From Oscillospiraceae bacterium (GTDB lineage: Bacteria; Bacillota; Clostridia; Oscillospirales; UBA929), in the NCBI GenBank assembly GCA_031271525.1, contig JAISVO010000037.1:1-38215 (forward strand): 38,215 nt of DNA, in the 5' to 3' direction. Below are positions 4,101 to 23,265 of the stretch, one piece after another (position 1 is the stretch's first letter; every line of letters starts with the position of its first letter). The notes below the pieces were generated by a model, which had not been told where the DNA came from, did not search any database, and worked only from the letters and a program-made list of their open reading frames with translations. Position numbers and translations under genes: made by a program.

Positions 4101-4157
4101 CTATGGTGACGCGCAACACTGCAAATCCGAACTAAGTATTGGCTAGGAGGAAGGATT

Positions 4158-5816
4158 TTGGATCTATGCAACTGGTGGAAAGAAGCCGTCGTATACCAGA
4201 TATATCCGCGCAGTTTTCAGGATTCCAACGGCGACGGAATCGGCGACATACAGGGGATCATCAGCCGGCTGGATTATCTGAAGGATTTGGGAATCGACAT
4301 TATCTGGCTCAGTCCGGTCTATCAGTCCCCCAATATCGACGGCGGGTATGACATCTCCGATTATCAGGCAGTCTCCTCCGATTTCGGGACAATGGAGGAC
4401 ATGGAGCGGCTCTTGCAGCAAGCTCATCTGCGAGGACTGCGCGTCGTCATGGATTTGGTGGTCAACCACACTTCCGACCAGCACGCTTGGTTTTTAGAAT
4501 CCCGCTCGTCAAAAGACAATCCGAAACGGGATTGGTATATCTGGCGCGACGGTTTTCAGGACGGTGAGGAACCGAACGGGTTACGCAGCGTCTTCTCAGG
4601 TTCGGCGTGGGAGAAGGACGAGCAAACAGGGCAGTACTATATGCATCTGTTCGCGAGGGAACAGCCCGACCTGAACTGGGAGAATGCCGAGGTCCGCGAA
4701 GCGGTATACAGGATGATGCGGTGGTGGCTCGACAAAGGCGTTGACGGCTTCCGGATGGATGTGATCAACATGATCTCAAAACCGCCGGAGGCGCTGGCTG
4801 CGAGCGGCGGGGCTGGCTGCGAATGCGTCAACGGGCCGTATGTGCATACATACCTGCAAGAGATGAACAGAGAGGTCTTAAAACGGTACGATATCATGAC
4901 GGTGGGGGAAACGCCGGGTGTCACCGTTGAGCAAGCCCGGCAATACGGAGCCTCCGATTCGTCGGAATTGTCCATGATATTCCAATTTGAGCTGATGGAC
5001 ATAGACTCCGGGGCTTTAGGCAAGTGGAACCTACGCAGGTACGCGCTGCCGGAATTGAAGCGTATCCTGTCGCGCTGGCAGACGGGATTGGAAGGGTTCG
5101 CGTGGAACAGCCTGTTTTGGTCCAACCACGACCAACCGAGAGCCGTGAGCCGCTTTGGGGACGATTCCAACGACGAGAACCGGGTTTTGAGCGCAAAAAT
5201 GCTCGCCACCTGCCTGCACATGATGCAGGGCACGCCGTATATCTACCAAGGCGAGGAGCTTGGCATGACCAATATGCCATTTTCGGGATTGGAAGACATC
5301 CGGGACATCGAGACAGTCAACGCCTACAACGAGTTGGTCCGCCAAAAGCATATCTACACGCATGACGAGATGATGGCGAGGATCCGCAAATCCGGGCGTG
5401 ATAACGCCCGCACCCCGATGCAGTGGAACGGCGCGCAAAACGGCGGCTTTACCAATGGCACCCCGTGGATCGCGGTGAACCCCAACACCAAAACGATTAA
5501 CGCGGCCAGTCAAGCCGGCGACCCCGACTCGGTCTTCTCCTATTACAAAAAACTGATCCGGCTGCGTAAGCAATACCCGGTCATTGTGTACGGCTCATAT
5601 ACCGAGCCAGATCCCGGCGACGAGCGGGTTTTCGCGTATACCCGCAGATGGGGCGGTTCCGCGCTGTATGTACGGTGCAACTTCACGGCGGAGACGATAG
5701 ACAATATCGAGGTTCCGCGAAACGCGGAACTCCTGATCGGAAACTACCCGGAACCGGTCGAAACGATGCGTCCGTATGAGGCGCGCGTGTATTACGGTGA
5801 GTCGGATGAAGGGTAA
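4158..5816 (+). CDS. GH13 subfamily-31-type alpha-glucosidase, probably oligo-1,6-glucosidase / glucan 1,6-alpha-glucosidase (cytoplasmic)
   Basis: TTG start with AGGAGGAAGGA upstream. Motifs seen are WWKEAVVYQIYPRSFQDSNGDGIGD, DLVVNHTSDQH, GVDGFRMDVINMI (nucleophile Asp followed by Val), MTVGETPG (acid/base Glu) and FWSNHDQPR. No signal peptide. Confidence 0.92.
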   Translation: MDLCNWWKEAVVYQIYPRSFQDSNGDGIGDIQGIISRLDYLKDLGIDIIWLSPVYQSPNIDGGYDISDYQAVSSDFGTMEDMERLLQQAHLRGLRVVMDLVVNHTSDQHAWFLESRSSKDNPKRDWYIWRDGFQDGEEPNGLRSVFSGSAWEKDEQTGQYYMHLFAREQPDLNWENAEVREAVYRMMRWWLDKGVDGFRMDVINMISKPPEALAASGGAGCECVNGPYVHTYLQEMNREVLKRYDIMTVGETPGVTVEQARQYGASDSSELSMIFQFELMDIDSGALGKWNLRRYALPELKRILSRWQTGLEGFAWNSLFWSNHDQPRAVSRFGDDSNDENRVLSAKMLATCLHMMQGTPYIYQGEELGMTNMPFSGLEDIRDIETVNAYNELVRQKHIYTHDEMMARIRKSGRDNARTPMQWNGAQNGGFTNGTPWIAVNPNTKTINAASQAGDPDSVFSYYKKLIRLRKQYPVIVYGSYTEPDPGDERVFAYTRRWGGSALYVRCNFTAETIDNIEVPRNAELLIGNYPEPVETMRPYEARVYYGESDEG

Positions 5817-7638
5817 GATTTTTGCCGCCTGTTTGGTTCTGCTGGCGTCTTCCTGCTCAAAAGCGCCGTCCGCGCCGCCGGCAAGCGAGCCGCCCCCGCC
5901 GCCGCCGACTGCCCCCATAGAACAAATTGAGGAGCTGCGAAGTATGGTTCTGATCCGCGACCTGTACACCGACAAGAGCCGGTACAACCCCGGTGATACG
6001 CCCGTCCTGACTGTGGAGCTCAGTGACGCGGATATTGGGTTGTTTACCGTCGGTGTCAAGGTGCGGCATGTCTTCGCCGAAGTGTTTTCGACGGACGTCG
6101 AGACGACCGCCGCGGAGGGGACGGTGGATATTCCGCTCACCCTTCCGGAGGACGATTTTACCGGCTACAGCGTGGAAGTGACCTGCCGCGCCGGAAAGGA
6201 ACTGCTGGACTATGGCATGACCGCCGTGGACGTATCAAGCGATTGGAATGTTTTTCCACGATATGGTTACCTTACGAAGATGAAGGCGCGCACGGAGGAC
6301 GATAGCAGACGCGTACTGGACCGTCTGCGGAAGCACCATATCACCGGGCTGTTTTACTATGACGTCATCGACGCGCACGACAAGCCGCTGGCGGGAACGG
6401 TTGACAATCCGGCTGAATCATGGAACACGCTGAACCATGCGCCGGCCTCCAGACAAACGGTCATCGACCTGATCCGTATCGGCCATGAGTATAACATGGC
6501 TTCGTTCCTCTATAATTTGATTTTTGGAGCCTATGATGATTACCGGCAGAAGGGCGTCTCAGCCGAATGGGGCCTTTACAAAGACCCAAGGCATGAGAAA
6601 CAGGACAACCACGATTTGTCGTCGCTCGGGTGGGAATCAAAGCGCCTTTGGGTGTTTGACCCCGGAAATACGCAATGGCAGGACTACTACGTCAAAGTCC
6701 ACGCGGATGTTTTGAACGCTTTTGGCTACGACGGCATTCAGGTGGACTCCCTCGGAAACCGGGGTGTTCTGTTTGACTACGACGGGAATCCGGTCAAGTT
6801 AAATGAGCGGTATACTTCCCTTCTGTCACGGCTGAAGGAGGAGCTGAATACCCGCGTCCTGTTCAACGCCGTTTCGGGCTACGGAATGAGCGAACAGCTA
6901 ACCGCAAGCTATCCCGACATCCTATATATGGAGATATGGCCGGGCGACGGTTCCTCCTACACCAAGCTCAAAACCGAAACAGACCGCATTTACAAGGCGA
7001 CGGGCGGAGAGCGGGGAACGGTGTTGGCGGCGTACATGAATTATGGGAAGAACGGTAAAACGTTCAATCGGCCCGGGGTCAACCTGACCAATGCCGTTCT
7101 GCTGGCAGCCGGCGGCAGCCACTTAGAGCTGGGCGACACAGGGATGCTCAGCAGCGAGTATTATCCGGGCGAATCGCTGCTGATACCGGAGACGCTGGCC
7201 GGAGATCTGCGCGGATACTACTCTTTCATGACGGCGTATGAAAACCTGCTGCGCGGGCCCGGGCTGACCGACGGCAAAAACAGCGTCTATATCGGCGGAA
7301 ACCTAGCTTCCGTTATCGCGGACAAAGACCGCGTCTGGAGCTTCTCCAAAGAAAAAGAGGACGGCACCGGAATCTATCATTTGATCAACCTGACTGGGGT
7401 TGAGCATACCGATTGGGCGGACACAGACAGCACCCAAACCGAGCCGTCGCCTCTAAAAAACCAGATTACCCGGATATACGCCGCAAAAACTCCACGGACG
7501 GTGGGGGTGGCTTCCCCCGATTGGCGGAGCGGGCTCTTGACCGAAGTACCCTTCACATGCGGAGCGGACGAGAAAGGCGCGTACATCGAGTTTACGTTAC
7601 CCAGCTTAACGTATTGGACAATGGTCGTAACAAAGTAA
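5806..7638 (+). CDS. GH66-like dextranase-type glycoside hydrolase, probable lipoprotein
   Basis: I prefer the ATG at 5806: MKGKIFAACLVLLASSC, a signal peptide with a lipobox-like Cys followed by a Pro-rich linker. GH66-like segments are DVSSDWNVFPRYGYL, HITGLFYYDVIDAHD, FGYDGIQVDSLGNRG (candidate nucleophile Asp) and ILYMEIWPG (candidate acid/base Glu). The start overlaps the GH13 gene by 11 nt. Confidence 0.75.
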   Translation: MKGKIFAACLVLLASSCSKAPSAPPASEPPPPPPTAPIEQIEELRSMVLIRDLYTDKSRYNPGDTPVLTVELSDADIGLFTVGVKVRHVFAEVFSTDVETTAAEGTVDIPLTLPEDDFTGYSVEVTCRAGKELLDYGMTAVDVSSDWNVFPRYGYLTKMKARTEDDSRRVLDRLRKHHITGLFYYDVIDAHDKPLAGTVDNPAESWNTLNHAPASRQTVIDLIRIGHEYNMASFLYNLIFGAYDDYRQKGVSAEWGLYKDPRHEKQDNHDLSSLGWESKRLWVFDPGNTQWQDYYVKVHADVLNAFGYDGIQVDSLGNRGVLFDYDGNPVKLNERYTSLLSRLKEELNTRVLFNAVSGYGMSEQLTASYPDILYMEIWPGDGSSYTKLKTETDRIYKATGGERGTVLAAYMNYGKNGKTFNRPGVNLTNAVLLAAGGSHLELGDTGMLSSEYYPGESLLIPETLAGDLRGYYSFMTAYENLLRGPGLTDGKNSVYIGGNLASVIADKDRVWSFSKEKEDGTGIYHLINLTGVEHTDWADTDSTQTEPSPLKNQITRIYAAKTPRTVGVASPDWRSGLLTEVPFTCGADEKGAYIEFTLPSLTYWTMVVTK

Positions 7639-7654
7639 GGAAAGGAAGAGACAC

Positions 7655-9181
7655 ATGAAAAAATCCCGACGCATTATGGTCTTGGCGCTCTGTCTGTTGC
7701 TGCTCGCGGCGGCGGCCGCGTGTAACAGTACCTCCGCACCGCCGGATAGCGGCGCGAACCCTCCCGGCAGCAGCCCCGGCGAAAACGACACGCCGGATAC
7801 GCCGGCGGATGACACACCGGCTGACAGTCAGCCTGCCGGGACCGACCGGTACCAGATCGGCGGAAAGGTTGTCGCGGCGACAAACGCCGGGCGTTCAACC
7901 GATCTGCATACGCTGTGGGAAAACTTCAATACATACTATCCAAACATCGAGCTGGAGATTGTCGAATACGAAACCAACACGGCGGAGTTCCTGACAGCGC
8001 AAGCGACGGCGGGCACGATGCCGGACGTGGTCATCGACGACGCCGATCAGATTTACTACTATATTTCCCAAGGTTGGGTGTATCCATTGGATTCGTTCGT
8101 TGAAAACGACGCCGATTTCGGATATGTCCCCGAGATGCTGACCGAAAGCTATACCTTCGGCGACCGGCTGTACGCGCTGCCGATGCAGACGCACTTCAAC
8201 GTCGTCTTTGTCAATATGGACTTGCTGAACGCGCTGAACATGGATCCGCCGGAATTTGACTGGACGCCCGAGGACTATAGGGAGTTTCTGAAAAACGGGA
8301 CAACCGACGAATATTCCGGCACCGAAATTCTTTGGGGGATCGACGAAATCCTCGCCGGCGCGATGAACGCGGAGAATGATTTCTATGGGTTTTCGCTGGC
8401 GGAGCATAAGTTCAATATGTCGGAATCGTGGGTTGACGCCGTCGGTCTGATGCGTGAAATGCGCGAGTATCCGGGGCTAGAGGCGTGGAGTTTACGGAAC
8501 TCGGGGAACGACGGCGAAGAGAACGACTATACCCGGAAATTCGGTTCGAGCAACGTGAGCGATAACCACATGGCCTTGAAGCTTGGCAAGGTGCTGTCCG
8601 ACCCGAGGGGGACGTGGGACGCCAACTGGCTTAAGACAGACTGTGATTTTGCTTGGGAGTTTTTCCCCTTCCCGCAGGGAGCCGACGCACTGGGACACCT
8701 GCCGATGCATGTGGACTGCTCTTGGGTCGTCTCCACGGCGCAAGCTCCGGAAGCCGCCTTTGAGGTCGCCCGCTTCTTCACCTACAGTTTGGAAGGCAAT
8801 CTGGAACGGATGACGATGCACGAAAACGGCGGCACCGACGCTTACACCGTCGACAACGACTTCTATATCCCGACGACAAATCACCCGGACGTGCGAAGCC
8901 GCTTTGAAAACCTCCCCGGCGTCACCGACGGGCTGGTCTACATGTTCGACAACATGAAAAACTCCTTCCGCGCCGATCTCAGCAAACTGGTTCCCGGGTG
9001 GTCGCAAGTGAACGACGAATATCTGAGTCCCTTGGGCAACGAAGTCAGGGACGGCATCACCGAGGCGGCGTCCGTCGCGGCGGAGCTCGACAATACGGCC
9101 ACTGCGGCGATCCAAAATTACTGGACCGACTTCCTCGACAAACTCAGCGCGATCCAAACGGAGTTTGACAGCGCCCCGTAG
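7655..9181 (+). CDS. Extracellular solute-binding lipoprotein (ABC, family 1, large about 500-aa type)
   Basis: Signal peptide and lipobox are MKKSRRIMVLALCLLLLAAAAAC. A Pro/Asp/Thr-rich linker follows, then an SBP-like body with GTMPDVVIDD. Confidence 0.85.
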   Translation: MKKSRRIMVLALCLLLLAAAAACNSTSAPPDSGANPPGSSPGENDTPDTPADDTPADSQPAGTDRYQIGGKVVAATNAGRSTDLHTLWENFNTYYPNIELEIVEYETNTAEFLTAQATAGTMPDVVIDDADQIYYYISQGWVYPLDSFVENDADFGYVPEMLTESYTFGDRLYALPMQTHFNVVFVNMDLLNALNMDPPEFDWTPEDYREFLKNGTTDEYSGTEILWGIDEILAGAMNAENDFYGFSLAEHKFNMSESWVDAVGLMREMREYPGLEAWSLRNSGNDGEENDYTRKFGSSNVSDNHMALKLGKVLSDPRGTWDANWLKTDCDFAWEFFPFPQGADALGHLPMHVDCSWVVSTAQAPEAAFEVARFFTYSLEGNLERMTMHENGGTDAYTVDNDFYIPTTNHPDVRSRFENLPGVTDGLVYMFDNMKNSFRADLSKLVPGWSQVNDEYLSPLGNEVRDGITEAASVAAELDNTATAAIQNYWTDFLDKLSAIQTEFDSAP

Positions 9182-9230
9182 CGCGCCGACAGTCTTTGGA
9201 ATCGAATAAGAACGGCAGGAGGGGCGGTTG

Positions 9231-12023
9231 TTGAAAAGACGAATCATTCTAATTTTCGTTTTGTGCGTTACGCTCGCGTTCGTTGTTCTGCCCCTGTGCT
9301 TTGCCGGGAACTTCGGCGACACGCTGCCCGACGCGGCCGGTCGTCATCTGTCCGTCGCTGCTGAACGCTGGAATGTTTATGAAGTAACGGAGGCATATGA
9401 ACTCGGCGGTCTGTCCATTCCGAAGGGTGAGATGGTCAGCGTCCCGATAACGCTGCCCGAGGCGGGGAATTACCGCGTGGCGCTGACGTATACCTTGCCG
9501 GACCCCGCCGTGCTGGACGCCGTGTTCACGGTGGGGACAGCACAGGGCGAATCGCGGGCGATCCTCCCCGTATTGTGGAGCGATTCCGGCGGACCTTTTC
9601 CGGTTGACCGCTACGGCAACGAGCTAAACCGAGATCAAGCCGCGCTGACACTTCCGGTGACCGCCGCACTGCGGCTCCAAGGCGCGGTGGGCGCGGACGA
9701 CCTGCTGCTCCCGGCGGGCGGCAGCGTATTGACCCTCCGCCCCGACACGCAGGCGATCATACTCGAGCGGCTGCTGCTGCTGCCAGAGCAAAGCGAACCG
9801 GCCACTCCGGCCGCCGGGAAACTGAACGGGGAACTAATCACACTGGAGGCGGAGAACTACACTCTCAAATCCGATTCGTTTATCCGGACCAAAGGCGTCC
9901 GCAATCCGGTACTGTCCCCTTACGACACATATTCGCGCAAGATGAACGCGATCGACGAGAACTCGTGGGATACCGCCGGGCAGAAGATCCTATGGACATT
10001 TGAGGTTCCGGAAGCGGGCCTTTACAACGCCGGGTTCCGTTACAGTCAGGTTTCGCGGCCCGGCAAGCGTTCGTACCGCCGGCTGGAGATCGACGGGCTG
10101 CCTGTCTCCGACGCGTTGATTCCGTTCGCGCCGACCCGGTTGGACGAGTATAAAAACTATACGGCGGACGGTTCGGTATATCTCGAAAAAGGGATCCACA
10201 CGCTGGCCCTGACGTCTGTGCTCGGCCCTGAGGAATCGGTGTATCACGAACTGATGCGGATTATGGGCGACCTTTCGGGTATGGGGATGGACCTGAAGAT
10301 TCTCACGGCAGGCAACACAGACCCAAACCGCACATGGGATATGAATGCCTACTTGCCGGAGATACCGGGGCGTTTGCTGCGCGCGGCGAAAGAACTGGAG
10401 CGGTGCTACGCCGATCTGTCGGCCGGCACCGAGCCTATATATGCCTCCGACCTGCTGTACGCCTCCGAAGTACTCCGCAGATTGTGCGAAGACACACGCA
10501 CGCTGCCAAACAAAGCCGGCCTGATCAGCGAGGGGGACGCCTCGATCAGCGCCTCGGTCAGCAATGTGCTGCAGACACTGCTGGAATCGCCGCTCTCACT
10601 CGACCGCATATACCTGACCTCCGGCGCTCCCCTGCCGGGCGACTCGGTTTCGCCTTTTACGCAGATTGCCGAGAGCATACGTACATTCGCGCATACCTTC
10701 TCGGCAGGAGCGTCCGGCTACGCGGTCGACGGCAGCGGGGACGCAGCCGAACTTCAAGTGTGGGTAGGCATGTCCGTACAGCACACGGAGGTTCTTCAGC
10801 AGTTGATTAATCAAAAGTTCAACGAGACGGGCGGAAAGAATATTCAGCTGTCCATCATGCCGAACCCCCAAAAGCTGGTGCTCGCCAATGCAACCGGAAC
10901 AGGCCCCGATGTCGTGCTGGGGGTTCCGTTTTATCTGCCATATGATTTTGCCATTCGCGGAGCCGCGAAAAACCTGTTGGAATATCAAGATTTTCTGAGT
11001 ATTTACGCGAAACAGTATAATTTGGAGGGTCTTGTTCCATTGAGTTACGACGGCGGGGTCCACGGGGCTGTGGAGAGCGTGAACTTCCAAGTCCTCTACT
11101 ACCGGAACGACATCATGGAAAAGCTTGGGCTCTCTCTGCCCGACACATGGGACGACGTGGTCGGCATGATGCCGGACCTCCTGCGTAACGAGATGAACTT
11201 CAATCTGTCTTTGGCCAACAACATAGGGTTCAAGACTTTCAACACCACAAGCCCCTTCATCTATCAAAACAAAGGTTCTTTCTTCAGCGCCGACGGAGCG
11301 TCTTCCGCTTTCACCGAAGGGGCCGCCGTCAACGGCTTCACGCAGATGACAGACCTGTTTTCGGCGTACTCTTTGAGCGAATACGTCGCCAATTTTTTCA
11401 ACGCCTTCCGGTACGGAGAGGTTCCGATCGGCGTGGGGGGTTACGATATGTATATGCGCCTGTCGGTCGCCGCCCCGGAATTGCAGGGACTTTGGGACAT
11501 CGCGCTTACGCCGGGTCACGCAATAGACGGTGAGGTCCTGCGGTATCAATCAGCCGACAGCACCGCCTGCATGATTTTCTCCGACTCCGACAAAACCGAT
11601 GAGGCTTGGGAGTTTTTGAAGTGGTGGCTGTCCGAGGAGACGCAGGTTCGGTTCTCCTATCAGCTCGAAAACACCTACGGCACGGAATACCGCTGGAACA
11701 CCGCAAACCTCGGCGCTTTTACCCAGCTTCCGTATCCGGAGGAGCACAAAGCGGTTATCCTTGAACAGCTCCGCTGGCAGAAGGAAAACATCCGGCACCC
11801 GGCGGGCTATATGGTGGAGCGCGAAGCGTCCAATGTGTGGAACAACGTCGTGGCAAACCACAAAGAGATTATGGCGTCGATCGACCGCGCGAAGATCGCC
11901 TCCGACCGGGAGATTCTGCGGAAGCTCAGGGAATTCGGCTTTGTCAGCGCTGAGGGCGAGGTCCTGCGCCCCTATCCTATCGATACGATCGGAGGTTTGT
12001 CGGAGGGAGCGGGCGACTCATGA
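9231..12023 (+). CDS. Giant (about 930 aa) secreted protein: CBM-like beta-sandwich modules, a helical linker and a C-terminal family-1 solute-binding domain
   Basis: Two adjacent TTG codons lie at 9228 and 9231. AGGAGGGG at 9217-9224 favours 9231. The N-terminal signal/anchor is [28 protein letters not shown]6/35-style segments are [13 protein letters not shown]...[21 protein letters not shown]...IHTLALT. The SBP-type segment begins near nt 10747 ([24 protein letters not shown]...GTGPDVVLG). Confidence 0.8.
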
Positions 12024-12943
12024 CAAAGAAACTCAGGAGCCACCGCGCGGGAATGGTGACCACCGGGCGAAGTGCCATCGTGATCATGCTGCTTCCCTAC
12101 GGCCTGCTGTTCACCCTGTTTATCATCCTCCCGGTCATCGCGGCCTTCGGATTGTCCTTCACCGATTTCGACACGATACAACCGCCCGCTTTCGCCGGGT
12201 TGAAAAATTATATCACCTTACTTACGGCCGACGAAGTGTTTATGCAGAAGGTTCTGCCGAACACCATCCTCTTCTCGCTGGTTGTTGGCGTAGGTGGATA
12301 CCTCCTGTCCTTCCTGTTGGCGTGGAGCCTTTCGCAGCTCACAAAAATCCCCCGAACCGTCATGGCGATCATCATTTATTTGCCGTCGATGACCGGCGGC
12401 GTCCTTCTCAGCGCGGTATGGGGCGTCATTTTCTCCGGCGAGAAGAGCGGGCCTCTCAACTACGCGCTGTTAAAGCTCGGCCTCATTGAGCAGCCGGTGC
12501 TTTGGCTGCAGTCGGAGTCCGCCCTGCTGATCATTATGATAATCGTCACGCTGTGGTCGAGCATGGGGATTGGGTTTTTAGCCATTTTAGCCGGTATTAT
12601 GAACGTCAATCAAGAGCTGTATGAGGCCGCGTATATCGACGGCGTCAGCAACCGTTTTCAAGAGATCGTCTACATTACGATCCCGAGTACCCGCCCTCAA
12701 ATGCTGTTCGGCGCGGTGATGGCGATCGTCAGTACCTTTTCGCAGAGCGGCGTCGGCGCGGCGCTGTCCGGCGCGAACCCAACCCCGGGGAACGCCGGGC
12801 AGCTGATCGTCCCCCATATTGAGGATTATGGGTTCCTGCGGTATGAGATGGGGTACGCCGCCGCGATCAGCGTCGCGCTGCTGCTGTTGATACGCCTTGC
12901 GTCGGTCGGCGCTAACAAGCTGTTCGGGTCGAAGGGGGAGTAG
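12020..12943 (+). CDS. Sugar ABC transporter permease (CUT1, MalF-like)
   Basis: ATGA overlap with the upstream stop. Six predicted TM segments. The EAA loop is [28 protein letters not shown]. Confidence 0.9.
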
Positions 12944-12945
12944 AT

Positions 12946-13857
12946 ATGGCAAGGAAGCGGAGGCTCATCCAGAATGGTATCAACCCCGCCCGTTTTGCCC
13001 GCGGGCAGATCAAGTTCTATGCCTTCCTCATCCCCCTATGCGCCGTCATGTCGTTACCTATCGTCTTTTTCTTCATAAACGCCTTTAAGCCGATGGAGGA
13101 GCTTTTCGCCTACCCGCCGCGCTTCTTTGTCAACCGCCCCACGCTTGACAACTTCATCCGGCTGTTTTCCATCTCGTCATCCACCACAATTCCGGCGTCC
13201 CGTTATCTGTTCAACAGCGTTCTGTCAACAGTTCTTGTCGTCGCGGCATCTCTCTGTATGTCGGTTTCAGCCGGATATGTCTTGAGCAAGAAGAGGTTTA
13301 GGCTTCGGAGCGCGTTGATGGAGGTCAACAATCTGGCGCTGATGTTTGTCGCGATTGCCGTGATGATCCCCCGGTACTTTATCATCGCCTACACCGGGCT
13401 GCAAAACAACTTCTTCGCCAACGTCGTTCCCCTTTTAGCCATGCCGGTCGGCCTTTTTCTGGTTAAGCAGTTCATAGACCAAATCCCGGATACCCTTGTC
13501 GAGGCGGCGGTCATCGATGGTGCCGGCGATTTCCGTATCCTGTCGAGCGTGGTCATGCCGCTGGTCAAGCCGGCTCTCGCGACGGTGTCGATCCTCTCAT
13601 TCCAGCTGTCGTGGAACAACGCCGAGGCCTCCGCGCTGTATATCAACAACGAAACGCTCAAGACATTCGCGTTCTACATGCAAAACCTCGGCGCGGGCGG
13701 TACCTCGTTCCTGCAAGGCGCGTCGGGAGGAAACAGCACAGCCGGCGCGGGGGTGGCCGCCGCCGCAATGTTGGTTATGTTTTTACCCAACCTGATCCTG
13801 TTTATCGTTTTGCAATCACAGGTTATGAACACAATGACGCACTCGGGGATTAAATAA
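12946..13857 (+). CDS. Carbohydrate ABC transporter permease (CUT1, MalG-like)
   Basis: 2-nt gap from the previous gene and a GGGGGAG RBS. The EAA loop is TLVEAAVIDGAGDFRILSSVVMPLVKP. A Gly/Ala-rich insert lies near the last TM. Confidence 0.9.
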   Translation: MARKRRLIQNGINPARFARGQIKFYAFLIPLCAVMSLPIVFFFINAFKPMEELFAYPPRFFVNRPTLDNFIRLFSISSSTTIPASRYLFNSVLSTVLVVAASLCMSVSAGYVLSKKRFRLRSALMEVNNLALMFVAIAVMIPRYFIIAYTGLQNNFFANVVPLLAMPVGLFLVKQFIDQIPDTLVEAAVIDGAGDFRILSSVVMPLVKPALATVSILSFQLSWNNAEASALYINNETLKTFAFYMQNLGAGGTSFLQGASGGNSTAGAGVAAAAMLVMFLPNLILFIVLQSQVMNTMTHSGIK

Positions 13858-13869
13858 GGAGGGAAAGCC

Positions 13870-15918
13870 ATGCCGCGGCGATGGAAATTTACTTTAACTT
13901 TTTGCCTGTCGGCGTTCCTTCTCTTCCCCTGCGCCTATGCCGGCGAAGGTACGGCGTATACATACACAATCTCGGTGAACGGGGACTGGATCCGCACGCA
14001 GGACGCCTACTTACCCGGCCGGATCCTGTTTCAGGATGGATCGCTCAACAAGCCGTACGACATATGTATCCGTGACGGAGCTATGTACGTCGCCGATTCG
14101 GGCGACGGTTGCGTTGTCCGCTACGATATGGCGACCGGCGAGAGCGTACGGTTCGGGGAGGACATTTTGGAAGGGCCGCGGGGCCTTTTCGTTTCAGCAG
14201 ACGGGCGCTGTTATGTCGCCGATTACGACGCGGAGCGGGTGGTGGTTTTTTCCTCCGACGGTCAGGCGGAGATGATCATAGACCGTCCGGAGAGTTACCT
14301 TTTCTCTGAACAAAGCCGGTACAAACCGACCGGCGTCGCGGTCGCCTCTTCCGGCATTATCTATGTTGTTGGCGAAGGCTCCTACGAAGGGATCATGCAG
14401 TTTTCCAAAAACGGCGGTTTCCAAGGGTATTATGCCGCAAACATGGCTGACATCAGCCTTCTGCAGCGCATACAGGAGCTGATTTTCAGCGAGCAGCAGC
14501 TCGGGCGTCTTCTAAACCGCACGCCACGCGCCATCCACGCGATAGATATTGATGAGTCAGACCTCGTATTCAGCGTCACGCAGGATGCCGCCGTGAGCTT
14601 CGAGTGGCGCGATGCCGTGACTTCGGGGGATGATAACGTCAAACGCCACAACTTTGCCGGGGAGAACATCCTGCGCAAAGAGGGCGGCATGGCGCAGGAG
14701 TGGAATTTTCATGATATTGCCGTAAGCCCCGGCGGCGGGTGCTATGTCCTTACGTCAACAGGATTGATCAACGAATACGACAGCTCGGCAAACCTTCTTT
14801 TTTCCTTTGGGGGGCGGGCTGTCTCAAGTGAGCGGAGCGGTTTGTTTACATCCGCCGCGGCGATTGATACCGACGAAAACGGGATTCTGTACGTACTCGA
14901 CATGGAACGGGGACATGTCCAAACCTTCTACCCGACCGAATTTGCGAACGCCACACACGCGGCGATCTCCGAACTGCTCGCGGGCAATTACGGGCAAAGC
15001 GAGCAGCTCTGGACCGAATTGCTCCGCTTAAACGGGTTGAGCTACCTAGCGCATTATGGATATGCCAAATGCCTCTTCGCGCAGCAGCGGTTTAGCGAAG
15101 CCTTGGAGCAGTACAGGATCGCGCGCGATATAACCGGTTACTCCGAAAGTTTTTGGGAACTCCGCGATGCTTGGCTGAACCGTTGGATCGGCGTCCTGCT
15201 GATGGCCGTTGTCGCGGCGGCTCTTCTCTTGTGGCTGTGGCGGAAGCTTGCGGCTTGTTCCCGCTTGCGGCGAGAACGCAAGCCGCTTACGGGTTGGCAA
15301 AAGGATACACTCTTGCTAAAAGAAATGCTGAGGCATCCGCTCGACAGTTTTTATTACATCAAGCGTGGAGAAAAGGGGAGTGTCGCGTTTGCCTCGGGGC
15401 TGTATGTCGCCGCGCTGGCGGTTTGGTTTTGGGATCGGCTATTCCGGGGTTTTGCCTTTAACCATACGAATATTCGTTATGAGCAGCCCCTCACGGTCGC
15501 GCTTCTCTTCCTCCTCCCTATCGGCTTATGGGTGACCGGGAACTATTTTGTGGCCTCTATCAACGACGGAGAAGGGAAATTCCGGGCGGTGTATGTCGGA
15601 ACCGCATACGCATTGGCCCCGTATATCCTCCTGATGCCAATACCGTTACTGCTCAGCTACGTCCTGACGCTCAACGAATCCTTTATCATACAGTTCTCAA
15701 CGGCATTCCTTCTGGCTTGGAGCGGTGTTCTCATTTTTGCCGGTGTGTCTGAAATCCACAACTACCGCTTCAAAGGCACGGTAAAGAACATTCTTCTCAC
15801 TGTTTTTTTCATGGTGATGGTCGTTGTGATATTCGTTGTCCTGTATTTGATTTGGCAGCAGGTGATTGAGTTTCTCGGCTCGGTCGGAGGGGAGGTTACT
15901 TATCGTGTTACGGCGTAA
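13870..15918 (+). CDS. Membrane protein: signal peptide, NHL-repeat beta-propeller, TPR-like helices and a C-terminal 5-TM Yip1-like domain
   Basis: AAGGAGGG RBS. The signal peptide ends ..FPCAYA/GE. Repeated NHL-type blades include PYDICIRDGAMYVADSGDGCVVRYD, PRGLFVSADGRCYVADYDAERVVVF, PTGVAVASSGIIYVVGEGS, FHDIAVSPGGGCYVLTSTG and AAAIDTDENGILYVLDMERGHVQTF. A helical segment follows (NYGQSEQLWTELLRLNG...RFSEALEQYRIARD), then a TM segment, a basic loop and five further TM helices. The Yip1 label is from memory of similar annotations. Confidence 0.75.
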   Translation: MPRRWKFTLTFCLSAFLLFPCAYAGEGTAYTYTISVNGDWIRTQDAYLPGRILFQDGSLNKPYDICIRDGAMYVADSGDGCVVRYDMATGESVRFGEDILEGPRGLFVSADGRCYVADYDAERVVVFSSDGQAEMIIDRPESYLFSEQSRYKPTGVAVASSGIIYVVGEGSYEGIMQFSKNGGFQGYYAANMADISLLQRIQELIFSEQQLGRLLNRTPRAIHAIDIDESDLVFSVTQDAAVSFEWRDAVTSGDDNVKRHNFAGENILRKEGGMAQEWNFHDIAVSPGGGCYVLTSTGLINEYDSSANLLFSFGGRAVSSERSGLFTSAAAIDTDENGILYVLDMERGHVQTFYPTEFANATHAAISELLAGNYGQSEQLWTELLRLNGLSYLAHYGYAKCLFAQQRFSEALEQYRIARDITGYSESFWELRDAWLNRWIGVLLMAVVAAALLLWLWRKLAACSRLRRERKPLTGWQKDTLLLKEMLRHPLDSFYYIKRGEKGSVAFASGLYVAALAVWFWDRLFRGFAFNHTNIRYEQPLTVALLFLLPIGLWVTGNYFVASINDGEGKFRAVYVGTAYALAPYILLMPIPLLLSYVLTLNESFIIQFSTAFLLAWSGVLIFAGVSEIHNYRFKGTVKNILLTVFFMVMVVVIFVVLYLIWQQVIEFLGSVGGEVTYRVTA

Positions 15919-18169
15919 CAAGAAAGGTCCGGTCTTGCTCGCACTCCTATTGGCTCTCGCGCTGTGTGTCAGCGTCTTTGCCGCCGGCACAGGCAAACAA
16001 AGCGCACCGCCGCCTGTCAGCCAAGCGGCGGACATCGAACTCAACTCTGTACGGTACGCAAAACCCGAGACGGAAACGGAGCGGGTCGTCAGCCCGGTCA
16101 CGCTGGACGGCTACGAGAGGAAGCTGGAAAACGGGACCTTGTCACTCTGGTTCCACGAGGAAACCGCGAGCTTACGTATTACGGACAAACGCAGCGGGTA
16201 TGTTTGGGGCTGCGTCGGCACTGAGCAGCCCAAGGGACTGAATAAATCGTGGTATTCGCTCGCGAGCTCCCTGCTGTCAATAGAGTATTACGACGAAAAG
16301 AACGCCGAAAAACGTGCGGGGATGATGGATGAGGAGACTGATTGCTCCTATGGGTGGACGTCTGAGGAACTGACCGCCCATGTGTCGTTTTCCGAAATCG
16401 GAATCTCATTGACCGTGCGGGTACGGCTGGATAACGAAAGCATCCTTCTTTCGGTTGACCCGGACAGCGTACGGGAATCGGGAGACGCGAAGATAAAATC
16501 TGTCTATTTCCTTCCGTTTTTGGGTGCGGTACGCGAAAACACCCTGTTAGGGTATATGCTGATCCCTGACGGGCCGGGCGCATTGATCCGTTATTCCCCT
16601 TCCGTTGGCTACACTTCGGTGTACAACAAGAGAATCTACGGCCCCGATATGAGCATAGACGCCCTCTCCGTCCCGAGCGGATTACAGGCGAGCCGGGGGG
16701 ACGACTACTTGGTGGCGGAGCCGCAGATCACCCTGCCGGTATTCGGCGTGGTACACGGCGCGTATCAAAACGCTTTTTACGGCGAAGTGACCGGCGGCGC
16801 GGAATACGCGTCGATACAAGCCTACGCTGCGGGTATGATTACCGACTTCAACTGGGTGACAGCGCGGTTTGATTTGCGCCAAAGCTATTTGAAACCCACA
16901 AACGGGGCTGGCGACGGGGTCTATGTCCCGCAGGAGGAGCAAAATAACGCGGCCCCGGCGGTGCGCTATACCTTCCTGACCGGCGATGACGCGGATTACA
17001 GCGGTATGGCCGTGGCTTACAGAACCGAGCTGGAAAAGCGGGGTATACTGGACACGCCCGTTAACGCGGCCGCCGAAACCCCGCTGTCCCTGACCGTCGT
17101 CGGAGCGGAGATACGGGACGGGTTCCTGTGGGACACCGTGGAACCCCTGACCACATTCGGGCAGGCTGCCGAAATGGCGGAGGATTTAAGGGACGCGGGA
17201 ATCAACAACATCACGATGGTGTATAGCGGCTGGCAGCGCGGCGGCCTCAGCAAGGCCAAAATGGGGGAGACAGCCATTCAGAGGAGCTTGGGCAGTCTGC
17301 GGGAATTGCAGGACCTGCGCGACTTTGTTTCACAAGCCGGCTCATTCTATTTGGAGGACAGGATTGTCACGGGGAATGACCCGCAGGTGTCGCGCCGCGG
17401 TCAGACCGCAGTCAACCGCTCTAAGGCATATATCCGTTTCACCCGCAACGACCCCGCGCTGATGTATAAAGACCGCTGGCTGGTCAAGCCCGGAATCGCC
17501 GCGCAGGCGCTTGTTACAGTGAGCCAGAAGATGCCGGGGTTTAGCAGGTTTTTGCCGGAATACGGCCAGTTCCTGTACTCTGACTATACGAGGAACTCCG
17601 AAACAACAAGGAGCGCGAACATGACGCTCCAAACCGAGACGGTATCCGAAGCCGGCACTCGGATCGCGCTGACCAATCCGAATCTTTATATGTGGCCCCA
17701 TACGGATAGGATCTTTGATGTGCCTGTCACAAGCGGACAGTACCTTTACACAACCGATACGGTTCCCTTTCTGCCCATTGTCTTTTCGGGGTACTTTGAG
17801 GCGTACGCGCCGAATATCAACCAAGGTTTTACCGCGCAAAACTCCGTTCTGCGGCTTGTGGAGTACGGCTTGAACCCGGCGTTTATCGTGATGGGGGCGG
17901 ACAATCAGGCTCTGGCCGACACCCCGCTGATCGACCTGTTTTCGATCCACTACCCCGATTGGCGTGAGCGAATCCTGACTGTTTATGATACCGTTTCGGT
18001 CCCGCTCAATAAAATCCGGGGCCGGAGCATCGTCAACCACCGCGTATTGGAGGAAGGTTTGGTACGCGTTCGGTATTCGGGCGGTGTGACGGTGTATGTG
18101 AATTACAACAACACGGATCGCATTGCCGACGGCTTGACCGTCCCCGCGAAAGGAGCGCTGGCGGTATGA
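15905..18169 (+). CDS. Signal-anchored/secreted 754-aa protein, DUF5696-like (function unknown)
   Basis: I prefer the GTG at 15905, with GGAGGGGAGG 7-8 nt upstream. This gives a 14-nt overlap with the NHL-Yip1 gene. The N-terminus is RRNKKGPVLLALLLALALCVSVFAAG. No motif of a named glycoside hydrolase family was recognised. The segment GYMLIPDGPGALIRY and the overall size recall proteins annotated as DUF5696. Confidence 0.7.
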   Translation: MLRRNKKGPVLLALLLALALCVSVFAAGTGKQSAPPPVSQAADIELNSVRYAKPETETERVVSPVTLDGYERKLENGTLSLWFHEETASLRITDKRSGYVWGCVGTEQPKGLNKSWYSLASSLLSIEYYDEKNAEKRAGMMDEETDCSYGWTSEELTAHVSFSEIGISLTVRVRLDNESILLSVDPDSVRESGDAKIKSVYFLPFLGAVRENTLLGYMLIPDGPGALIRYSPSVGYTSVYNKRIYGPDMSIDALSVPSGLQASRGDDYLVAEPQITLPVFGVVHGAYQNAFYGEVTGGAEYASIQAYAAGMITDFNWVTARFDLRQSYLKPTNGAGDGVYVPQEEQNNAAPAVRYTFLTGDDADYSGMAVAYRTELEKRGILDTPVNAAAETPLSLTVVGAEIRDGFLWDTVEPLTTFGQAAEMAEDLRDAGINNITMVYSGWQRGGLSKAKMGETAIQRSLGSLRELQDLRDFVSQAGSFYLEDRIVTGNDPQVSRRGQTAVNRSKAYIRFTRNDPALMYKDRWLVKPGIAAQALVTVSQKMPGFSRFLPEYGQFLYSDYTRNSETTRSANMTLQTETVSEAGTRIALTNPNLYMWPHTDRIFDVPVTSGQYLYTTDTVPFLPIVFSGYFEAYAPNINQGFTAQNSVLRLVEYGLNPAFIVMGADNQALADTPLIDLFSIHYPDWRERILTVYDTVSVPLNKIRGRSIVNHRVLEEGLVRVRYSGGVTVYVNYNNTDRIADGLTVPAKGALAV

Positions 18170-19035
18170 AACGGCGCTTGTTAAGCGTGTCGGCCCGGGA
18201 AGGGTTAGCGGGCTATCTGTTTTTTCTGCCGTGGATACTCGGCTTCGCGGTTTTTACCTTATACCCGGTCTTGTACTCTGTCTACATCAGCCTGAACGAG
18301 ATCCAAATATCGGCCGACGATTCTATACGCGCCGCATGGCAAGGCCTTCGGTATTATTATGAAGCGTTGCAAGTCGATACGAGTTTCTCCGCCGATTTAT
18401 ATGACGCGCTCCTTCATATCGTCTGCGCCACACCGGTGATTGTTGTTGTAGCCCTTGTGATCGCATTGTTTCTGTCCAAGCGGTATCCGCTGAGAACCTT
18501 TTTCCGGAGCGTATTCTTTCTGCCGGTGATCATCATGTCGGGTCCTGTTATTTCCGATCTGCTCGGGCAGTATTCTCTGGGACTGACGGAAGAATCACCG
18601 CTGTTATTCTCGTTTATGTCCGCCTTGCCGCAATTCCTGCAAAGCCCCGTTTTTTTCGTGCTGGACAATTTGGCGCTGATTCTATGGTTTTCCGGAGTGC
18701 AGATCCTGCTGTTCATCGCGGGTCTGAATAAAATCGGCCCCGAGCTGTATGAAGCGGCATCCATTGACGGAGCGTCGGCGTGGGAAAGCTTTTGGAAGAT
18801 CACGATGCCGCATCTGAAGCCCTTCGCGCTGCTTGGCGCCGTTTATTCCATCATGGAGGTGGCGAATTACGCAAACCTTTCCATCAACGAAAAAATCCGC
18901 AGTCACCTATACGAAATCGACCGCCCATACAGCTTTTCGTCCGCCATGAGTTGGATTTATTTCATCGCGGTTCTGCTTGTCTTGGGGCTTACATTCCTTC
19001 TGCTCGGAAATGGGAAAAGGGAGACGGCGAAATGA
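18166..19035 (+). CDS. Sugar ABC transporter permease (second pair, MalF-like)
   Basis: ATGA overlap with the DUF5696-like gene. Multi-TM protein. The EAA loop is ELYEAASIDGASAWESFWKITMPHLKP. Confidence 0.85.
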   Translation: MKRRLLSVSAREGLAGYLFFLPWILGFAVFTLYPVLYSVYISLNEIQISADDSIRAAWQGLRYYYEALQVDTSFSADLYDALLHIVCATPVIVVVALVIALFLSKRYPLRTFFRSVFFLPVIIMSGPVISDLLGQYSLGLTEESPLLFSFMSALPQFLQSPVFFVLDNLALILWFSGVQILLFIAGLNKIGPELYEAASIDGASAWESFWKITMPHLKPFALLGAVYSIMEVANYANLSINEKIRSHLYEIDRPYSFSSAMSWIYFIAVLLVLGLTFLLLGNGKRETAK

Positions 19036-19961
19036 AGACAGGAAAACATGGGCTGAAGATTCTTTTGGGCGGCAGGCGGCGGCCCGGCCTCCTTAGTTCC
19101 GCGTTCTATTTAGTTCTCCTTGGCGGTGTCGGCTTCCTCTTTTTATATCCCGTCCTGTATATGTGCGTTCAAAGTATCATGAGTCCGTCGGATATAACAG
19201 ATCCGGGCGTAGGGTGGATTCCCACCGCACTTTACGGAGGGAATTACGCAAAAGCTTTCACGACGCTGCATTTTCAAGAGGCGTTCTTTAACTCGCTGTA
19301 CTTATCGCTCGGGCCGTCCGTTCTCACCACGGTGGCCTCCTGCTTCATCGGTTATGGCCTAGCCCGTTTCCGTTTCCCGGGGAAAAGGATTTGGCTTGCC
19401 CTCCTTGTCGCGGCGTTTTTTATCCCGTCGCAGGTCATGATGATCCCGCGGTTCATGATGTTCTCTAGTTACCACATCATTAACACACCGCTGACGCAGT
19501 TTTTGCCGGCCGCGTTGGGACAGGGTATCAAAGGTTCGTTGTTCGTCCTCATTTTTATGCAGTTCTTTTCGAGTTACCCCAAGGCGTTGGACGAAGCCGC
19601 CGAAATCGACGGCGCGGGGAGAATGGGCGTATTCCTTCGCGTTGCCGTCCCTATGGCTAAACCCGCGATTGTCATATCCGTTTTATTCTCGTTCGTATGG
19701 TACTGGAACGAGACGACCCAAGCATCCCTGTTTTTTGGGACGCAAATCAAGACTCTGCCCATGAGATTGGGGAGTTTCGCTGAATCCTACAGCACAATAT
19801 ACGGAAGCTCGGCTAACGCCGCCAATGCCGCCGACGCGCTGAACGAGGCGATCAGCATGGCAGGCACCCTCCTGTCGGTACTGCCGCTGCTCCTGTTGTA
19901 TCTTGTCTTGCAGCGGCAGTTCGTGGAGAGCATTGAGAAATCCGGCATCACGGGCGAGTAA
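19032..19961 (+). CDS. Carbohydrate ABC transporter permease (second pair, MalG-like)
   Basis: I prefer the ATG at 19032 (MKTGKHGLKILLGG...), which overlaps the upstream stop as ATGA. The track start at 18780 lies inside the previous permease gene. The EAA loop is ALDEAAEIDGAGRMGVFLRVAVPMAKP. Confidence 0.9.
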   Translation: MKTGKHGLKILLGGRRRPGLLSSAFYLVLLGGVGFLFLYPVLYMCVQSIMSPSDITDPGVGWIPTALYGGNYAKAFTTLHFQEAFFNSLYLSLGPSVLTTVASCFIGYGLARFRFPGKRIWLALLVAAFFIPSQVMMIPRFMMFSSYHIINTPLTQFLPAALGQGIKGSLFVLIFMQFFSSYPKALDEAAEIDGAGRMGVFLRVAVPMAKPAIVISVLFSFVWYWNETTQASLFFGTQIKTLPMRLGSFAESYSTIYGSSANAANAADALNEAISMAGTLLSVLPLLLLYLVLQRQFVESIEKSGITGE

Positions 19962-20032: not shown

Positions 20033-20638
20033 ATGAAAAAGGCCCTGACACTCATTCTGACAATCGCATTTGCCCTCGGCGTTGCCGCTCCCGCGTTAGC
20101 CGTCTCGGAGGTTTATCTGGAAGGCGAAGATGTCTACGGCGGCAACATCAACAACGGAGCCACTATGGGCGGAACCGAGAACGACAACGCGGCTGATCTG
20201 CAACCGGGTGAAAAGCTCAGCTTTATCCTGCCGGCGGATTTGACCGAAGGTGAGTACACTGTCGAAGTAAGGACCACAGGCAACCGCACCGATTACAACG
20301 TCTATGTCGGCGATACCTTGGCGGCAACGGTGAAGCGTCCGGAAGGCTCGGGATGGGGCTTTGATGTTATGACCACCGACGCGGCGACGGCGAACATCCA
20401 ATTAAAACCCGGAGATACCATAGCGGTTGAAGCGCCGGACAACGGCGAGTACGGCTGGGTCGACTGGGTAAAGCTGACTTTGGTCAATGCCGCGCAACCC
20501 ACCGCCCCTGCGGAACCGGCCGCTCCCGCCAACAACCCCAAAACCGGGGACTTCGGATTCATCTGGCTTGCGATTGCCCTCCTTGGCGCTGCGTCGGTAA
20601 CCTCGGTTTTCCTCGTGAAAGCTAAGAAGAAATCGTAG
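20033..20638 (+). CDS. Cell-wall-anchored CBM-like surface protein (NPKTG sorting signal)
   Basis: AAAGGAGGA RBS. The signal peptide is MKKALTLILTIAFALGVAAPALA. A single beta-sandwich-like module follows (VYLEGEDVYGG...EYGWVDWVKLTL), then the Pro/Ala linker AAQPTAPAEPAAPA. The sorting signal is NPKTG (20534-20548), a hydrophobic stretch and a KAKKKS tail. Confidence 0.8.
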   Translation: MKKALTLILTIAFALGVAAPALAVSEVYLEGEDVYGGNINNGATMGGTENDNAADLQPGEKLSFILPADLTEGEYTVEVRTTGNRTDYNVYVGDTLAATVKRPEGSGWGFDVMTTDAATANIQLKPGDTIAVEAPDNGEYGWVDWVKLTLVNAAQPTAPAEPAAPANNPKTGDFGFIWLAIALLGAASVTSVFLVKAKKKS

Positions 20639-23230: not shown

Positions 23231-23265
23231 AGACGGTAACCCCCTACGATCGGTTCTTCGCCGTC

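Follow-up and report, generated by a model that had tools for sequence, protein, structure and literature searches.

A 38,215-nucleotide contig of an Oscillospiraceae bacterium (JAISVO010000037.1 of assembly GCA_031271525.1; this whole stretch is called the window below) contains five consecutive genes encoding a giant solute-binding protein (SBP), two permeases of an ATP-binding cassette (ABC) transporter, a membrane protein that joins NHL, TPR and Yip1 segments, and a membrane-anchored protein of the DUF5696 family. Together they form the core of a cassette of eight genes, which also holds a smaller SBP and a second pair of permeases, and which recurs in the same order in four phyla. We consider it moderately likely that this cassette is a conserved, membrane-embedded system for glycan uptake, attached to differing sets of glycan-degrading genes.

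An alignment of DUF5696 sequences was scanned against one genome per species (185,579 species), which returned at least 591 loci with a DUF5696 relative. The neighbourhood counts given here were made on the best 80 of these at least 591 loci, in which open reading frames (ORFs) were called and matched to the window proteins by phmmer. In its conserved arrangement, the cassette runs from the giant SBP through permeases 1 and 2, the NHL-TPR-Yip1 protein, and the DUF5696 protein to permeases 3 and 4, with the small SBP gene placed either before or after. Scored in the 64 loci with at least 7.5 kb of upstream and at least 2.2 kb of downstream flank, the full seven-gene order from giant SBP to permease 4 was found in 61. 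The three exceptions resemble artefacts of ORF calling or of thresholds; in L053, for instance, the Yip1 ORF is present and is overlapped by an over-extended DUF5696 ORF. An SBP of 450-540 aa was scored as the immediate upstream neighbour of the giant SBP in 41 loci, and as the gene immediately 3' of permease 4 in 7. The Yip1 gene directly precedes DUF5696 in 73 of 74 loci. Reciprocally, when metagenome contigs were scanned with a 13-sequence NHL-Yip1 alignment (a 39-sequence alignment was too divergent), DUF5696 lay next to the Yip1 gene in 67 of the 68 loci with at least 1 kb downstream. The sole exception, L135, carries a low-GC, Mu-like insertion (8326-13963) that truncates the Yip1 gene at residue 461. 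The cargo of this insertion consists of a helix-turn-helix repressor-like gene, a Mu-type transposase, and a MuB/TniB-like ATPase. A preliminary description of the window, made from its sequence, had suggested that the same gene set recurs in other Firmicutes, and these searches bear that out.

The cassette and the genes directly around it in the window are listed below (GH, glycoside hydrolase family; CBM, carbohydrate-binding module).

2930..3961, minus strand: LacI-family regulator, an ORF divergent from the operon
4158..5816, plus strand: cytoplasmic GH13 oligo-1,6-glucosidase (Pfam Alpha-amylase, E 1.4e-167)
5776..7638, plus strand: GH66 endo-dextranase, probable lipoprotein (Pfam Glyco_hydro_66, E 1.7e-155)
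7655..9181, plus strand: small lipoprotein SBP of 508 aa (SBP_bac_1/8; lipobox LAAAAAC)
9228/9231..12023, plus strand: giant membrane-anchored SBP of about 930 aa (Pfam, AlphaFold model, Foldseek)
12020..12943, plus strand: ABC permease 1, of the CUT1 family and MalF/UgpA-like (BPD_transp_1; NCBIfam GlcT/UgpA-like)
12946..13857, plus strand: ABC permease 2, of the CUT1 family and MalG/UgpE-like (BPD_transp_1; NCBIfam UgpE/MalG-like)
13870..15918, plus strand: NHL-TPR-Yip1 protein of 682 aa (Pfam Yip1, NHL, TPR_16)
15905..18169, plus strand: DUF5696 protein of 754 aa (PF18952, E 5.6e-156)
18166..19035, plus strand: ABC permease 3 (BPD_transp_1)
19032..19961, plus strand: ABC permease 4 (BPD_transp_1, E 3e-15)
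20033..20638, plus strand: sortase-anchored CBM-like surface protein (translation, hydropathy)

The five genes had originally been described as a coupled block embedded in an alpha-glucan operon. The ORF map and the junction sequences confirmed the genes and their spacing: the giant SBP stop and the permease 1 start overlap in an ATGA at 12020-12023, gaps of 2 nt and 12 nt separate permease 1 from permease 2 and permease 2 from the Yip1 gene, the DUF5696 gene overlaps the Yip1-gene stop by 14 nt (15905-15918), and the DUF5696 stop overlaps the permease 3 ATG in another ATGA at 18166-18169. The boundaries of the block did not hold, however, as the small SBP gene upstream and the genes for permeases 3 and 4 downstream belong to the same cassette. 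The permease 3 stop is overlapped by the permease 4 ATG at 19032 (ATGA), and the DUF5696 start is a GTG at 15905, about 8 nt 3' of GGAGGGGAGG, a GGAGG-type site. Across the loci, and with junctions measured from the in-frame start nearest the upstream stop, which biases the counts towards small gaps, 58 of 76 have a DUF5696 gene whose start overlaps the Yip1 stop (by 8, 14 or 11 nt), permease 3 directly follows DUF5696 in 75 (with the ATGA-type, 4-nt overlap seen in the window in 34), and the giant SBP gene overlaps permease 1 in 45 of 66. Since the order and the tight junctions recur in dozens of unrelated genomes, this is not a chance pattern.

The cassette was found in Bacillota, Thermotogota, Chloroflexota, and the wall-less Mycoplasmatota. 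Its carriers include Oscillospiraceae, Lachnospiraceae, Acutalibacteraceae, many Bacillales, and Erysipelotrichaceae, as well as Thermotogota (Fervidobacterium, Kosmotogaceae), a metagenome-assembled genome (MAG) of the Anaerolineae, wall-less Mycoplasmatota/Izemoplasmatales, and Haloplasma, and the neighbourhood is kept around DUF5696 relatives of just 22-26% identity. Carriers that can be cultivated include Metabacillus idriensis, Sutcliffiella horikoshii, Paenibacillus lactis, and Clostridium thermarum. The suggestion that the system serves a Gram-positive envelope is thus too narrow, given its presence in Thermotogota, Anaerolineae, and wall-less Mycoplasmatota and Haloplasma. An origin by insertion of the five genes into a pre-existing SBP-permease operon of this lineage was also ruled out, as the arrangement is ancestral across phyla. 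In three MAGs the cassette is present twice, on separate contigs (L005/L011, L017/L020, and L006/L015), which suggests that the two copies are paralogues for different glycans; the downstream flanks of the L017/L020 pair differ. A distant Oscillospiraceae version, L082, has a gene for a GDSL-type lipase/esterase (L082:5470-6885) between the positions of permeases 1 and 2, and a regulator of the AraC type instead of LacI.

The DUF5696 and NHL-TPR-Yip1 proteins

The 754-aa protein encoded downstream of the Yip1 gene matched DUF5696 (Pfam PF18952) with 521 bits against a cut-off of 25.6, over positions 8-611 of the 612 in the model. At 50% identity, this large family comprises at least 4,042 clusters with E<=1e-30 and 6,927 with E<=1e-3. 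An AlphaFold model built with 58 homologues (predicted local distance difference test, pLDDT, 90.7; predicted template modelling score, pTM, 0.90) places a transmembrane helix at 8-28, a beta-sandwich at about 70-360, and a (beta/alpha)8-like barrel at about 394-680, with a beta domain at the C-terminus. Compared with the PDB by Foldseek, this model was closest to the GH129 enzyme ZgGH129 (5opq/8rzk; E 2e-31, TM-score 0.71 on the target), followed by the GH129 enzyme NagBb (5wzn; E 3.5e-25), GH101 (1e-21), and GH36 (1e-16), with GH31 and GH97 weaker. A profile of the DUF5696 family also finds ZgGH129 (E 4.8e-9) and NagBb (1.2e-5), over short segments, and the two groups have motifs in common in the first strands of the N-terminal domain and in DYxxMAxxY; a GW after beta2 aligns with NagBb. 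The single DUF5696 sequence gave no match among PDB sequences at E<=1, and a Pfam search of its two halves apart, at E<=10, returned no family besides DUF5696. Because the identity to GH129 is 12-13% and Pfam gives DUF5696 alone, the protein is remotely homologous to GH129, and still more remotely to GH101, and is not a GH129 member. The preliminary description could place this protein only as DUF5696-like; the family stands, and a fold can now be added to it.

Like the GH129 enzymes (the alpha-N-acetylgalactosaminidase NagBb and the 3,6-anhydro-D-galactosidase ZgGH129) and GH101, DUF5696 consists of an N-terminal beta-sandwich, a barrel, and a C-terminal beta domain. Unlike GH129, it carries an N-terminal membrane anchor, its genes lie in the context of ABC uptake of glucans and arabinan rather than of mucin or carrageenan, and the canonical nucleophile and acid/base positions are not strictly conserved. 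A barrel-only DUF5696 profile aligned only the beta2-beta3 stretch of NagBb among PDB sequences, leaving the catalytic residues unmapped by it, and a 44-aa fragment of ZgGH129 retrieved no full-length candidate from the protein database. Placed by spacing from the NagBb anchor, the candidate nucleophile is D560 (in LYSDY), which is D or E in 59 of 80 DUF5696 sequences and Y, N or H in about a quarter. The candidate acid/base is D605, which is D or E in 53 of 80; about a third have N, Q or G instead, and the closest homologue (70% identical) has Q. The residues that are best conserved among the same 80 sequences lie elsewhere:

D222 (in PDGxGAL): conserved in 80 of 80
N639: conserved in 79 of 80
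D/E653: conserved in 79 of 80
D/E618: conserved in 78 of 80
Y595: conserved in 76 of 80
R569: conserved in 74 of 80
D248: conserved in 73 of 80
R325: conserved in 72 of 80

Judged from this conservation pattern, D618 and E653, which are 35 residues apart, could form an alternative candidate catalytic pair. Long DUF5696 variants (790-892 aa) contained no extra recognisable domain.

The 682-aa protein encoded upstream of DUF5696 matched Yip1 (PF04893) at aa 485-655 (43.4 bits against a cut-off of 28.6, E 4e-11), along with NHL (E 9e-10) and TPR_16 (E 7e-7). By hydropathy, it has a signal peptide followed by six hydrophobic segments, and not the five transmembrane segments first counted; five of the six lie in the C-terminal third, one at aa 439-457 after the TPR region and four within the Yip1 match. 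The NHL part matched six-bladed NHL propellers among PDB sequences (Pizza designs and the PknD sensor, 1rwi). NHL, TPR and Yip1 segments are all kept in every locus, and the motifs LRHPIDS, NYLVSxINDGEG, and KEIHxY of the Yip1 domain are strongly conserved over 73 orthologues.

Neither bacterial Yip1-domain proteins nor DUF5696 had been thought to have an assigned biochemical role. For DUF5696 this stands, as no paper on it was found: the term is absent from the literature searched, which takes in few subscription journals. For Yip1 it does not, as the bacterial Yip1 protein YknW of Bacillus subtilis modulates the assembly of the ABC transporter YknXYZ (PMC4887032). As in YknWXYZ, where YknW is needed for transporter assembly, the cassette encodes a Yip1-domain protein together with an ABC transporter. 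YknYZ, however, is a MacB-type exporter that works with a membrane fusion protein, and YknW has no NHL/TPR ectodomain, whereas the transport genes of the cassette encode only BPD_transp_1 permeases and SBPs, and neither a MacB-type protein nor a fusion protein is among them. No link between Yip1 and glycan utilisation was found in the literature searched, and papers on beta-1,2-glucanases and on cycloisomaltooligosaccharide-binding SBPs made no mention of the cassette.

Transport components and glycan context

The Pfam search upheld all domain calls of the preliminary description (SBP_bac_1, BPD_transp_1, Yip1 with NHL and TPR, and DUF5696). In the giant SBP, SBP_bac_1 spans aa 518-806 of 931 (E 1e-16). 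The CBM-like segments and helical linker that had been proposed to precede it are visible in the AlphaFold model (pLDDT 87.5, pTM 0.84) as two beta-sandwiches (54-185 and 201-330) and a helical bundle (334-451), which follow an N-terminal transmembrane helix and are joined by a disordered linker to a MalE-type SBP fold (508-930). CBM_35 was detected in 17 of 40 giant SBP orthologues (best E 6e-7); a Pfam search at E<=10 of the N-terminal part of the window protein, and of the NHL part of its Yip1 neighbour, gave nothing beyond the families already found. Among PDB sequences, the best match of the giant SBP was Lin1841 (E 7e-12), and Foldseek returned oligosaccharide SBPs, including the Listeria sophoro-oligosaccharide SBP (5ysf) and a cycloisomaltooligosaccharide-binding protein (9xf5). 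All non-permease products of the cassette carry a signal peptide, a lipobox, or a transmembrane anchor, as judged by hydropathy.

Of all cassette components, the small SBP varies most, with an identity to its orthologues of 23-34% or undetectable. Its best match among solved structures is 22hh-22hl, "Extracellular solute-binding protein family 1" (E 7e-20). At its position upstream of the giant SBP, the Erysipelotrichaceae/Roseburia loci L060, L065, L066, L069, and L070 encode a lipoprotein of 535-578 aa (537 aa in Erysipelotrichaceae) without a Pfam match, which may be a very divergent SBP. The conservation of the remaining components differs widely, as seen when the median identity of each window protein to its orthologues is taken per context group:

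Permease 1: 58-65% across phyla
Permease 2: 54-60% across phyla
SBP domain of the giant SBP: 40-52%
Permeases 3 and 4: 33-50%
Yip1 domain: 33-43%
DUF5696: 27-37%
CBM-like N-terminal part of the giant SBP: 24-33%

Permeases 1 and 2 (54-65% between Bacillota, Thermotogota, and Mycoplasmatota) are thus more conserved than permeases 3 and 4 of the same cassette, which may reflect either constraint or recent transfer.

SBP_bac_1/8 in both window SBPs and BPD_transp_1 in all four permeases, whose nearest NCBIfam models are UgpA/E, MalG, and GlcT/U, place these proteins among CUT1 components. As in CUT1 importers such as the Listeria innocua Lin1841-1843 sophoro-oligosaccharide system and MalEFG/MsmEFGK, family-1 SBPs are combined with MalF/MalG-type permease pairs, and as in other Gram-positive CUT1 loci, a LacI regulator and cytoplasmic exo-enzymes or phosphorylases are located alongside. 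The cassette differs from these importers in having two permease pairs and two SBPs in one fixed block, in that one SBP is about 930-1000 aa long and carries a transmembrane anchor, two CBM-like sandwiches and a helical bundle, and in the obligatory presence of the NHL-TPR-Yip1 and DUF5696 proteins between the permease pairs.

In the window, the genes upstream of the cassette point to alpha-1,6-linked glucans. The best PDB matches of the GH13 protein are oligo-1,6-glucosidases (9u7v, E 1e-214; 1uok, 8e-206), and inspection of its translation revealed no N-terminal hydrophobic segment. The GH66 gene likely starts at ATG 5806, giving the N-terminus MKGKIFAACLVLLASSC followed by a Pro-rich linker; its product matches the dextranase 5axg in the PDB (E 1.9e-134) and scores 445 bits against the NCBIfam endo-dextranase model, which is under that model's cut-off. 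A wall-anchored CBM protein had been placed next to the end of the five-gene block. The protein itself is real (20033-20638), combining a signal peptide, a CBM-like beta domain, a Pro/Ala linker, NPKTG, a transmembrane segment, and KAKKKS, but it follows permease 4 and not DUF5696. The closest relative, L081, has a gene of 198 aa at the equivalent position, and additionally GH66-CBM35 and GH31-CBM genes. Degrading enzymes (GH66, GH13), ABC components, and the LacI regulator all lie within 2930-19961. Co-location of a degrading enzyme, a carbohydrate transporter, and a regulator is what defines a Gram-positive polysaccharide utilization locus (PUL), and the window locus is one by this definition.

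Elsewhere, the cassette lies beside other enzymes. The flanking ORFs of all loci (flanks of 10 kb) were clustered and the cluster representatives annotated, which gave the following sets:

Gut Clostridia: GH31, GH13, GH66; implied alpha-glucan/dextran
Bacillales, Anaerolineae MAG, Mycoplasmatota: GH144, GH94 1,2-beta-oligoglucan phosphorylase (SOGP), GH35-like, GH3; implied beta-1,2-glucan
Erysipelotrichaceae: GH16, GH30, GH3; implied beta-1,3/1,6-glucan
Other loci: GH51, GH43-ricin, GH2 or sensor kinase; implied arabinan and others

The tie to alpha-glucans made in the preliminary description is therefore confined to some lineages. As the flanking enzymes vary by lineage, the best-supported view is that the cassette is a substrate-swappable uptake platform and not an alpha-glucan-specific system. 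Several of the homologues of GH144, a family of endo-beta-1,2-glucanases, lie directly 3' of permease 4 and lack a signal peptide (L030:14038-15249, L038:14470-15678, L046:13924-15144, and others). Lipoprotein copies of GH144 occur in L040, L052, L053, L063, L067, and L073, some of which also have a cytoplasmic copy.

A proposed uptake mechanism and its alternatives

Import of glycans for catabolism is evident from the flanking gene sets, as had been anticipated; from these and from the cassette itself, we infer the logic of a machine for surface capture, processing, and import. In the window, it would be wired for dextran and isomalto-oligosaccharides. The GH66 lipoprotein would cut dextran outside the cell, while the polymer would be held at the surface by the giant SBP, through its CBM35-like modules, and by the sortase-anchored CBM protein. 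Oligosaccharides would then enter through two CUT1 translocators, one in which the giant SBP serves permeases 1 and 2, and another in which the small SBP serves permeases 3 and 4; a single MsmX-type ATPase, encoded elsewhere, would presumably power both. These SBP-permease pairings are proposals; the small SBP probably partners permeases 3 and 4, as supported by its alternative position directly 3' of permease 4. The cytoplasmic oligo-1,6-glucosidase would complete the breakdown, under control of LacI. By comparison with YknW and YknXYZ, the NHL-TPR-Yip1 protein is a likely membrane scaffold for both translocators, the giant SBP, and DUF5696. The DUF5696 ectodomain may serve as a subunit that binds or trims glycan, with a ligand or chemistry that would be independent of the glycan of the locus, because its best-conserved residues are unchanged across contexts. 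Specificity would be set by the variable parts (the small SBP, the CBM-like modules, and the flanking enzymes), while the constant parts (both permease pairs, Yip1, DUF5696, and the SBP domain) would form the machine. Export or secretion was considered as well, and was ruled out on the grounds that all four permeases are type I importer transmembrane domains and the flanks are catabolic.

Several points weigh against this proposal. A physical complex of the cassette products is deduced rather than observed. No ATPase gene was found inside the cassette, either in the window or in the loci examined, although shared ABC ATPases encoded elsewhere are usual in Bacillota. The partner of YknW is a MacB-type exporter and not a type I importer, which makes the Yip1 analogy a loose one. 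The candidate nucleophile D560 and acid/base D605 of DUF5696 are not strictly conserved, and its supposedly constant role has residue conservation as its sole basis, so that specificity could sit in other residues. Finally, a scan for promoters and terminators gave counts equal to those of shuffled sequence; the sites were not used as evidence, and transcription as a single operon is thus read from gene packing only.

An alternative that we consider possible, if somewhat improbable, is that DUF5696 is a new membrane-anchored, extracellular glycoside hydrolase or transglycosylase that makes the first cut, with a specificity that diverges per locus, and that the Yip1 protein merely positions it by ordinary importers. 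The high-confidence, three-domain fold of the GH129/GH101/GH36 type and the profile homology to GH129 are in line with this, as is the presence of acidic residues at both candidate catalytic positions of the window protein. Moreover, in Bacillales loci such as L030, L038, and L046, where all recognisable glycosidases (GH144, GH35-like, GH3, GH94) lack a signal peptide, DUF5696 is the only enzyme-like protein outside the cell. Those same positions, however, are replaced in about a quarter (D560) and a third (D605) of the members, the latter even in the 70%-identical homologue. Whether the context is alpha-glucan, beta-1,2-glucan, beta-1,3-glucan, or arabinan, the best-conserved residues stay the same, and the structural neighbours are all alpha-retaining enzymes, whereas most contexts involve beta-linked glycans. 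In the window, a first cut would already be provided by the secreted GH66 endo-dextranase.

That enzyme also bears on a second alternative, in which the constant core (giant SBP, permeases 1 and 2, Yip1, and DUF5696) imports long or cyclic chains largely uncut for depolymerisation in the cytoplasm, while the small SBP and permeases 3 and 4 take up short products. A cytoplasmic GH144 endo-glucanase implies import of long oligosaccharides, and in many Bacillales loci GH144 homologues of this kind lie directly 3' of permease 4, in operons that encode no secreted glycanase. The giant SBP has CBM35-like modules that would suit polymers and an SBP domain similar to proteins that bind long or cyclic oligosaccharides (5ysf, sophoropentaose; 9xf5, cycloisomaltooctaose; 7bvt), and permeases 1 and 2 are unusually conserved. 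There is reportedly a precedent for import of macromolecules by an ABC system in Sphingomonas A1. Secreted or lipoprotein endo-glycanases are nevertheless present in several loci (GH66 in the window; lipoprotein GH144, GH16, and GH30 elsewhere), further ones could lie beyond the 10 kb of flank covered, and long-chain import is itself proposed from genes; we regard this division of labour as unlikely. A related proposal, which we hold to be doubtful though less so, is that the constant core is a multi-subunit machine that binds and imports long or cyclic glycans of any linkage largely intact. Here, Yip1 would organise the machine and DUF5696 would be a non-classical, possibly non-hydrolytic component, making the whole a monoderm counterpart of SusCD. 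That the genes are neighbours without functional coupling, i.e., two independent sugar importers and two unrelated membrane proteins held together by drift or block transfer, appears very improbable. Horizontal transfer of the whole block could keep the order for a time, and a coupling of the products is itself proposed from genes. The order is kept, however, at protein identities down to 22-30% and over four phyla, start/stop overlaps are kept at the Yip1-DUF5696 and DUF5696-permease 3 junctions, co-occurrence holds both ways (73/74 and 67/68), and the flanking genes are reshuffled while the cassette block stays intact.

The glycan-uptake cassette that we favour is built from components of known kinds (a CUT1 importer, a Gram-positive PUL, a GH129-like fold, and a Yip1 protein), but the fixed eight-gene combination, with its two obligatory uncharacterised members, is undescribed within the literature searched. 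Like the Sus systems of Bacteroidota, it brings together surface capture, a surface enzyme, a transporter, and a regulator in one locus, with a constant core and swappable enzymes. Unlike them, it relies on ABC transport over a single membrane, and neither SusC (a TonB-dependent transporter) nor SusD was found among the scanned window ORFs. The alginate "pit" ABC importer of Sphingomonas sp. A1 (AlgQ1/Q2-AlgM1M2SS) is said to take up very large glycan substrates with the help of accessory surface proteins; it is reportedly from a Gram-negative organism and, in contrast to the cassette, has no Yip1 or GH129-like component.

The usual scheme of ABC-type glycan uptake by Gram-positive bacteria of gut and soil has one SBP and two permeases. 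The cassette departs from this picture in being fixed and very widespread, in having two extra obligatory proteins and a second translocator, and in being reused for chemically unrelated glycans. If its products form one complex, bacterial Yip1 proteins and DUF5696 would gain a function, and monoderm PULs would gain a modular uptake core, which would help to predict glycan use by gut Oscillospiraceae and Lachnospiraceae. Such a complex may also account for growth on beta-1,2-glucan by bacteria whose endo-glucanases are all cytoplasmic.

Regulation and other genes of the window

LacI homologues flank the cassette in 23 other loci. In the divergent region between the LacI and GH13 genes of the window, promoter-like sites lie at 3997-4026 (minus strand) and 4068-4096 (plus strand). 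A search of 3950-4170 for inverted repeats as a LacI operator found none. The same promoter region (4007-4120) contains three direct copies of CGCGCAA, near 4013, 4055, and 4110, which, judged by their sequence and placement, may be operator half-sites.

Other ABC genes are present at both ends of the window. Two ORFs (825-1634 and 1631-2824) read in translation as an ABC ATPase and a multi-span permease, and 31993-32955, well outside the operon, encodes a Pfam ABC_tran ATPase, followed two genes on by a member of the ABC_transp_aux family (33672-35111). Neither the genes at 825-2824 nor those at 31993-35111 were placed as the missing ATPase of the sugar importers. Between the operon and the latter, the minus strand of 20649-31091 encodes a leucine-rich repeat protein, a GH67 alpha-glucuronidase, a flavin adenine dinucleotide (FAD)-linked oxidase, an FGGY sugar kinase, and two FAD oxidoreductases, with an aldose 1-epimerase on the plus strand (23376-24458). 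This region appears to be a carbohydrate/glycerol-type gene set unrelated to the dextran operon.

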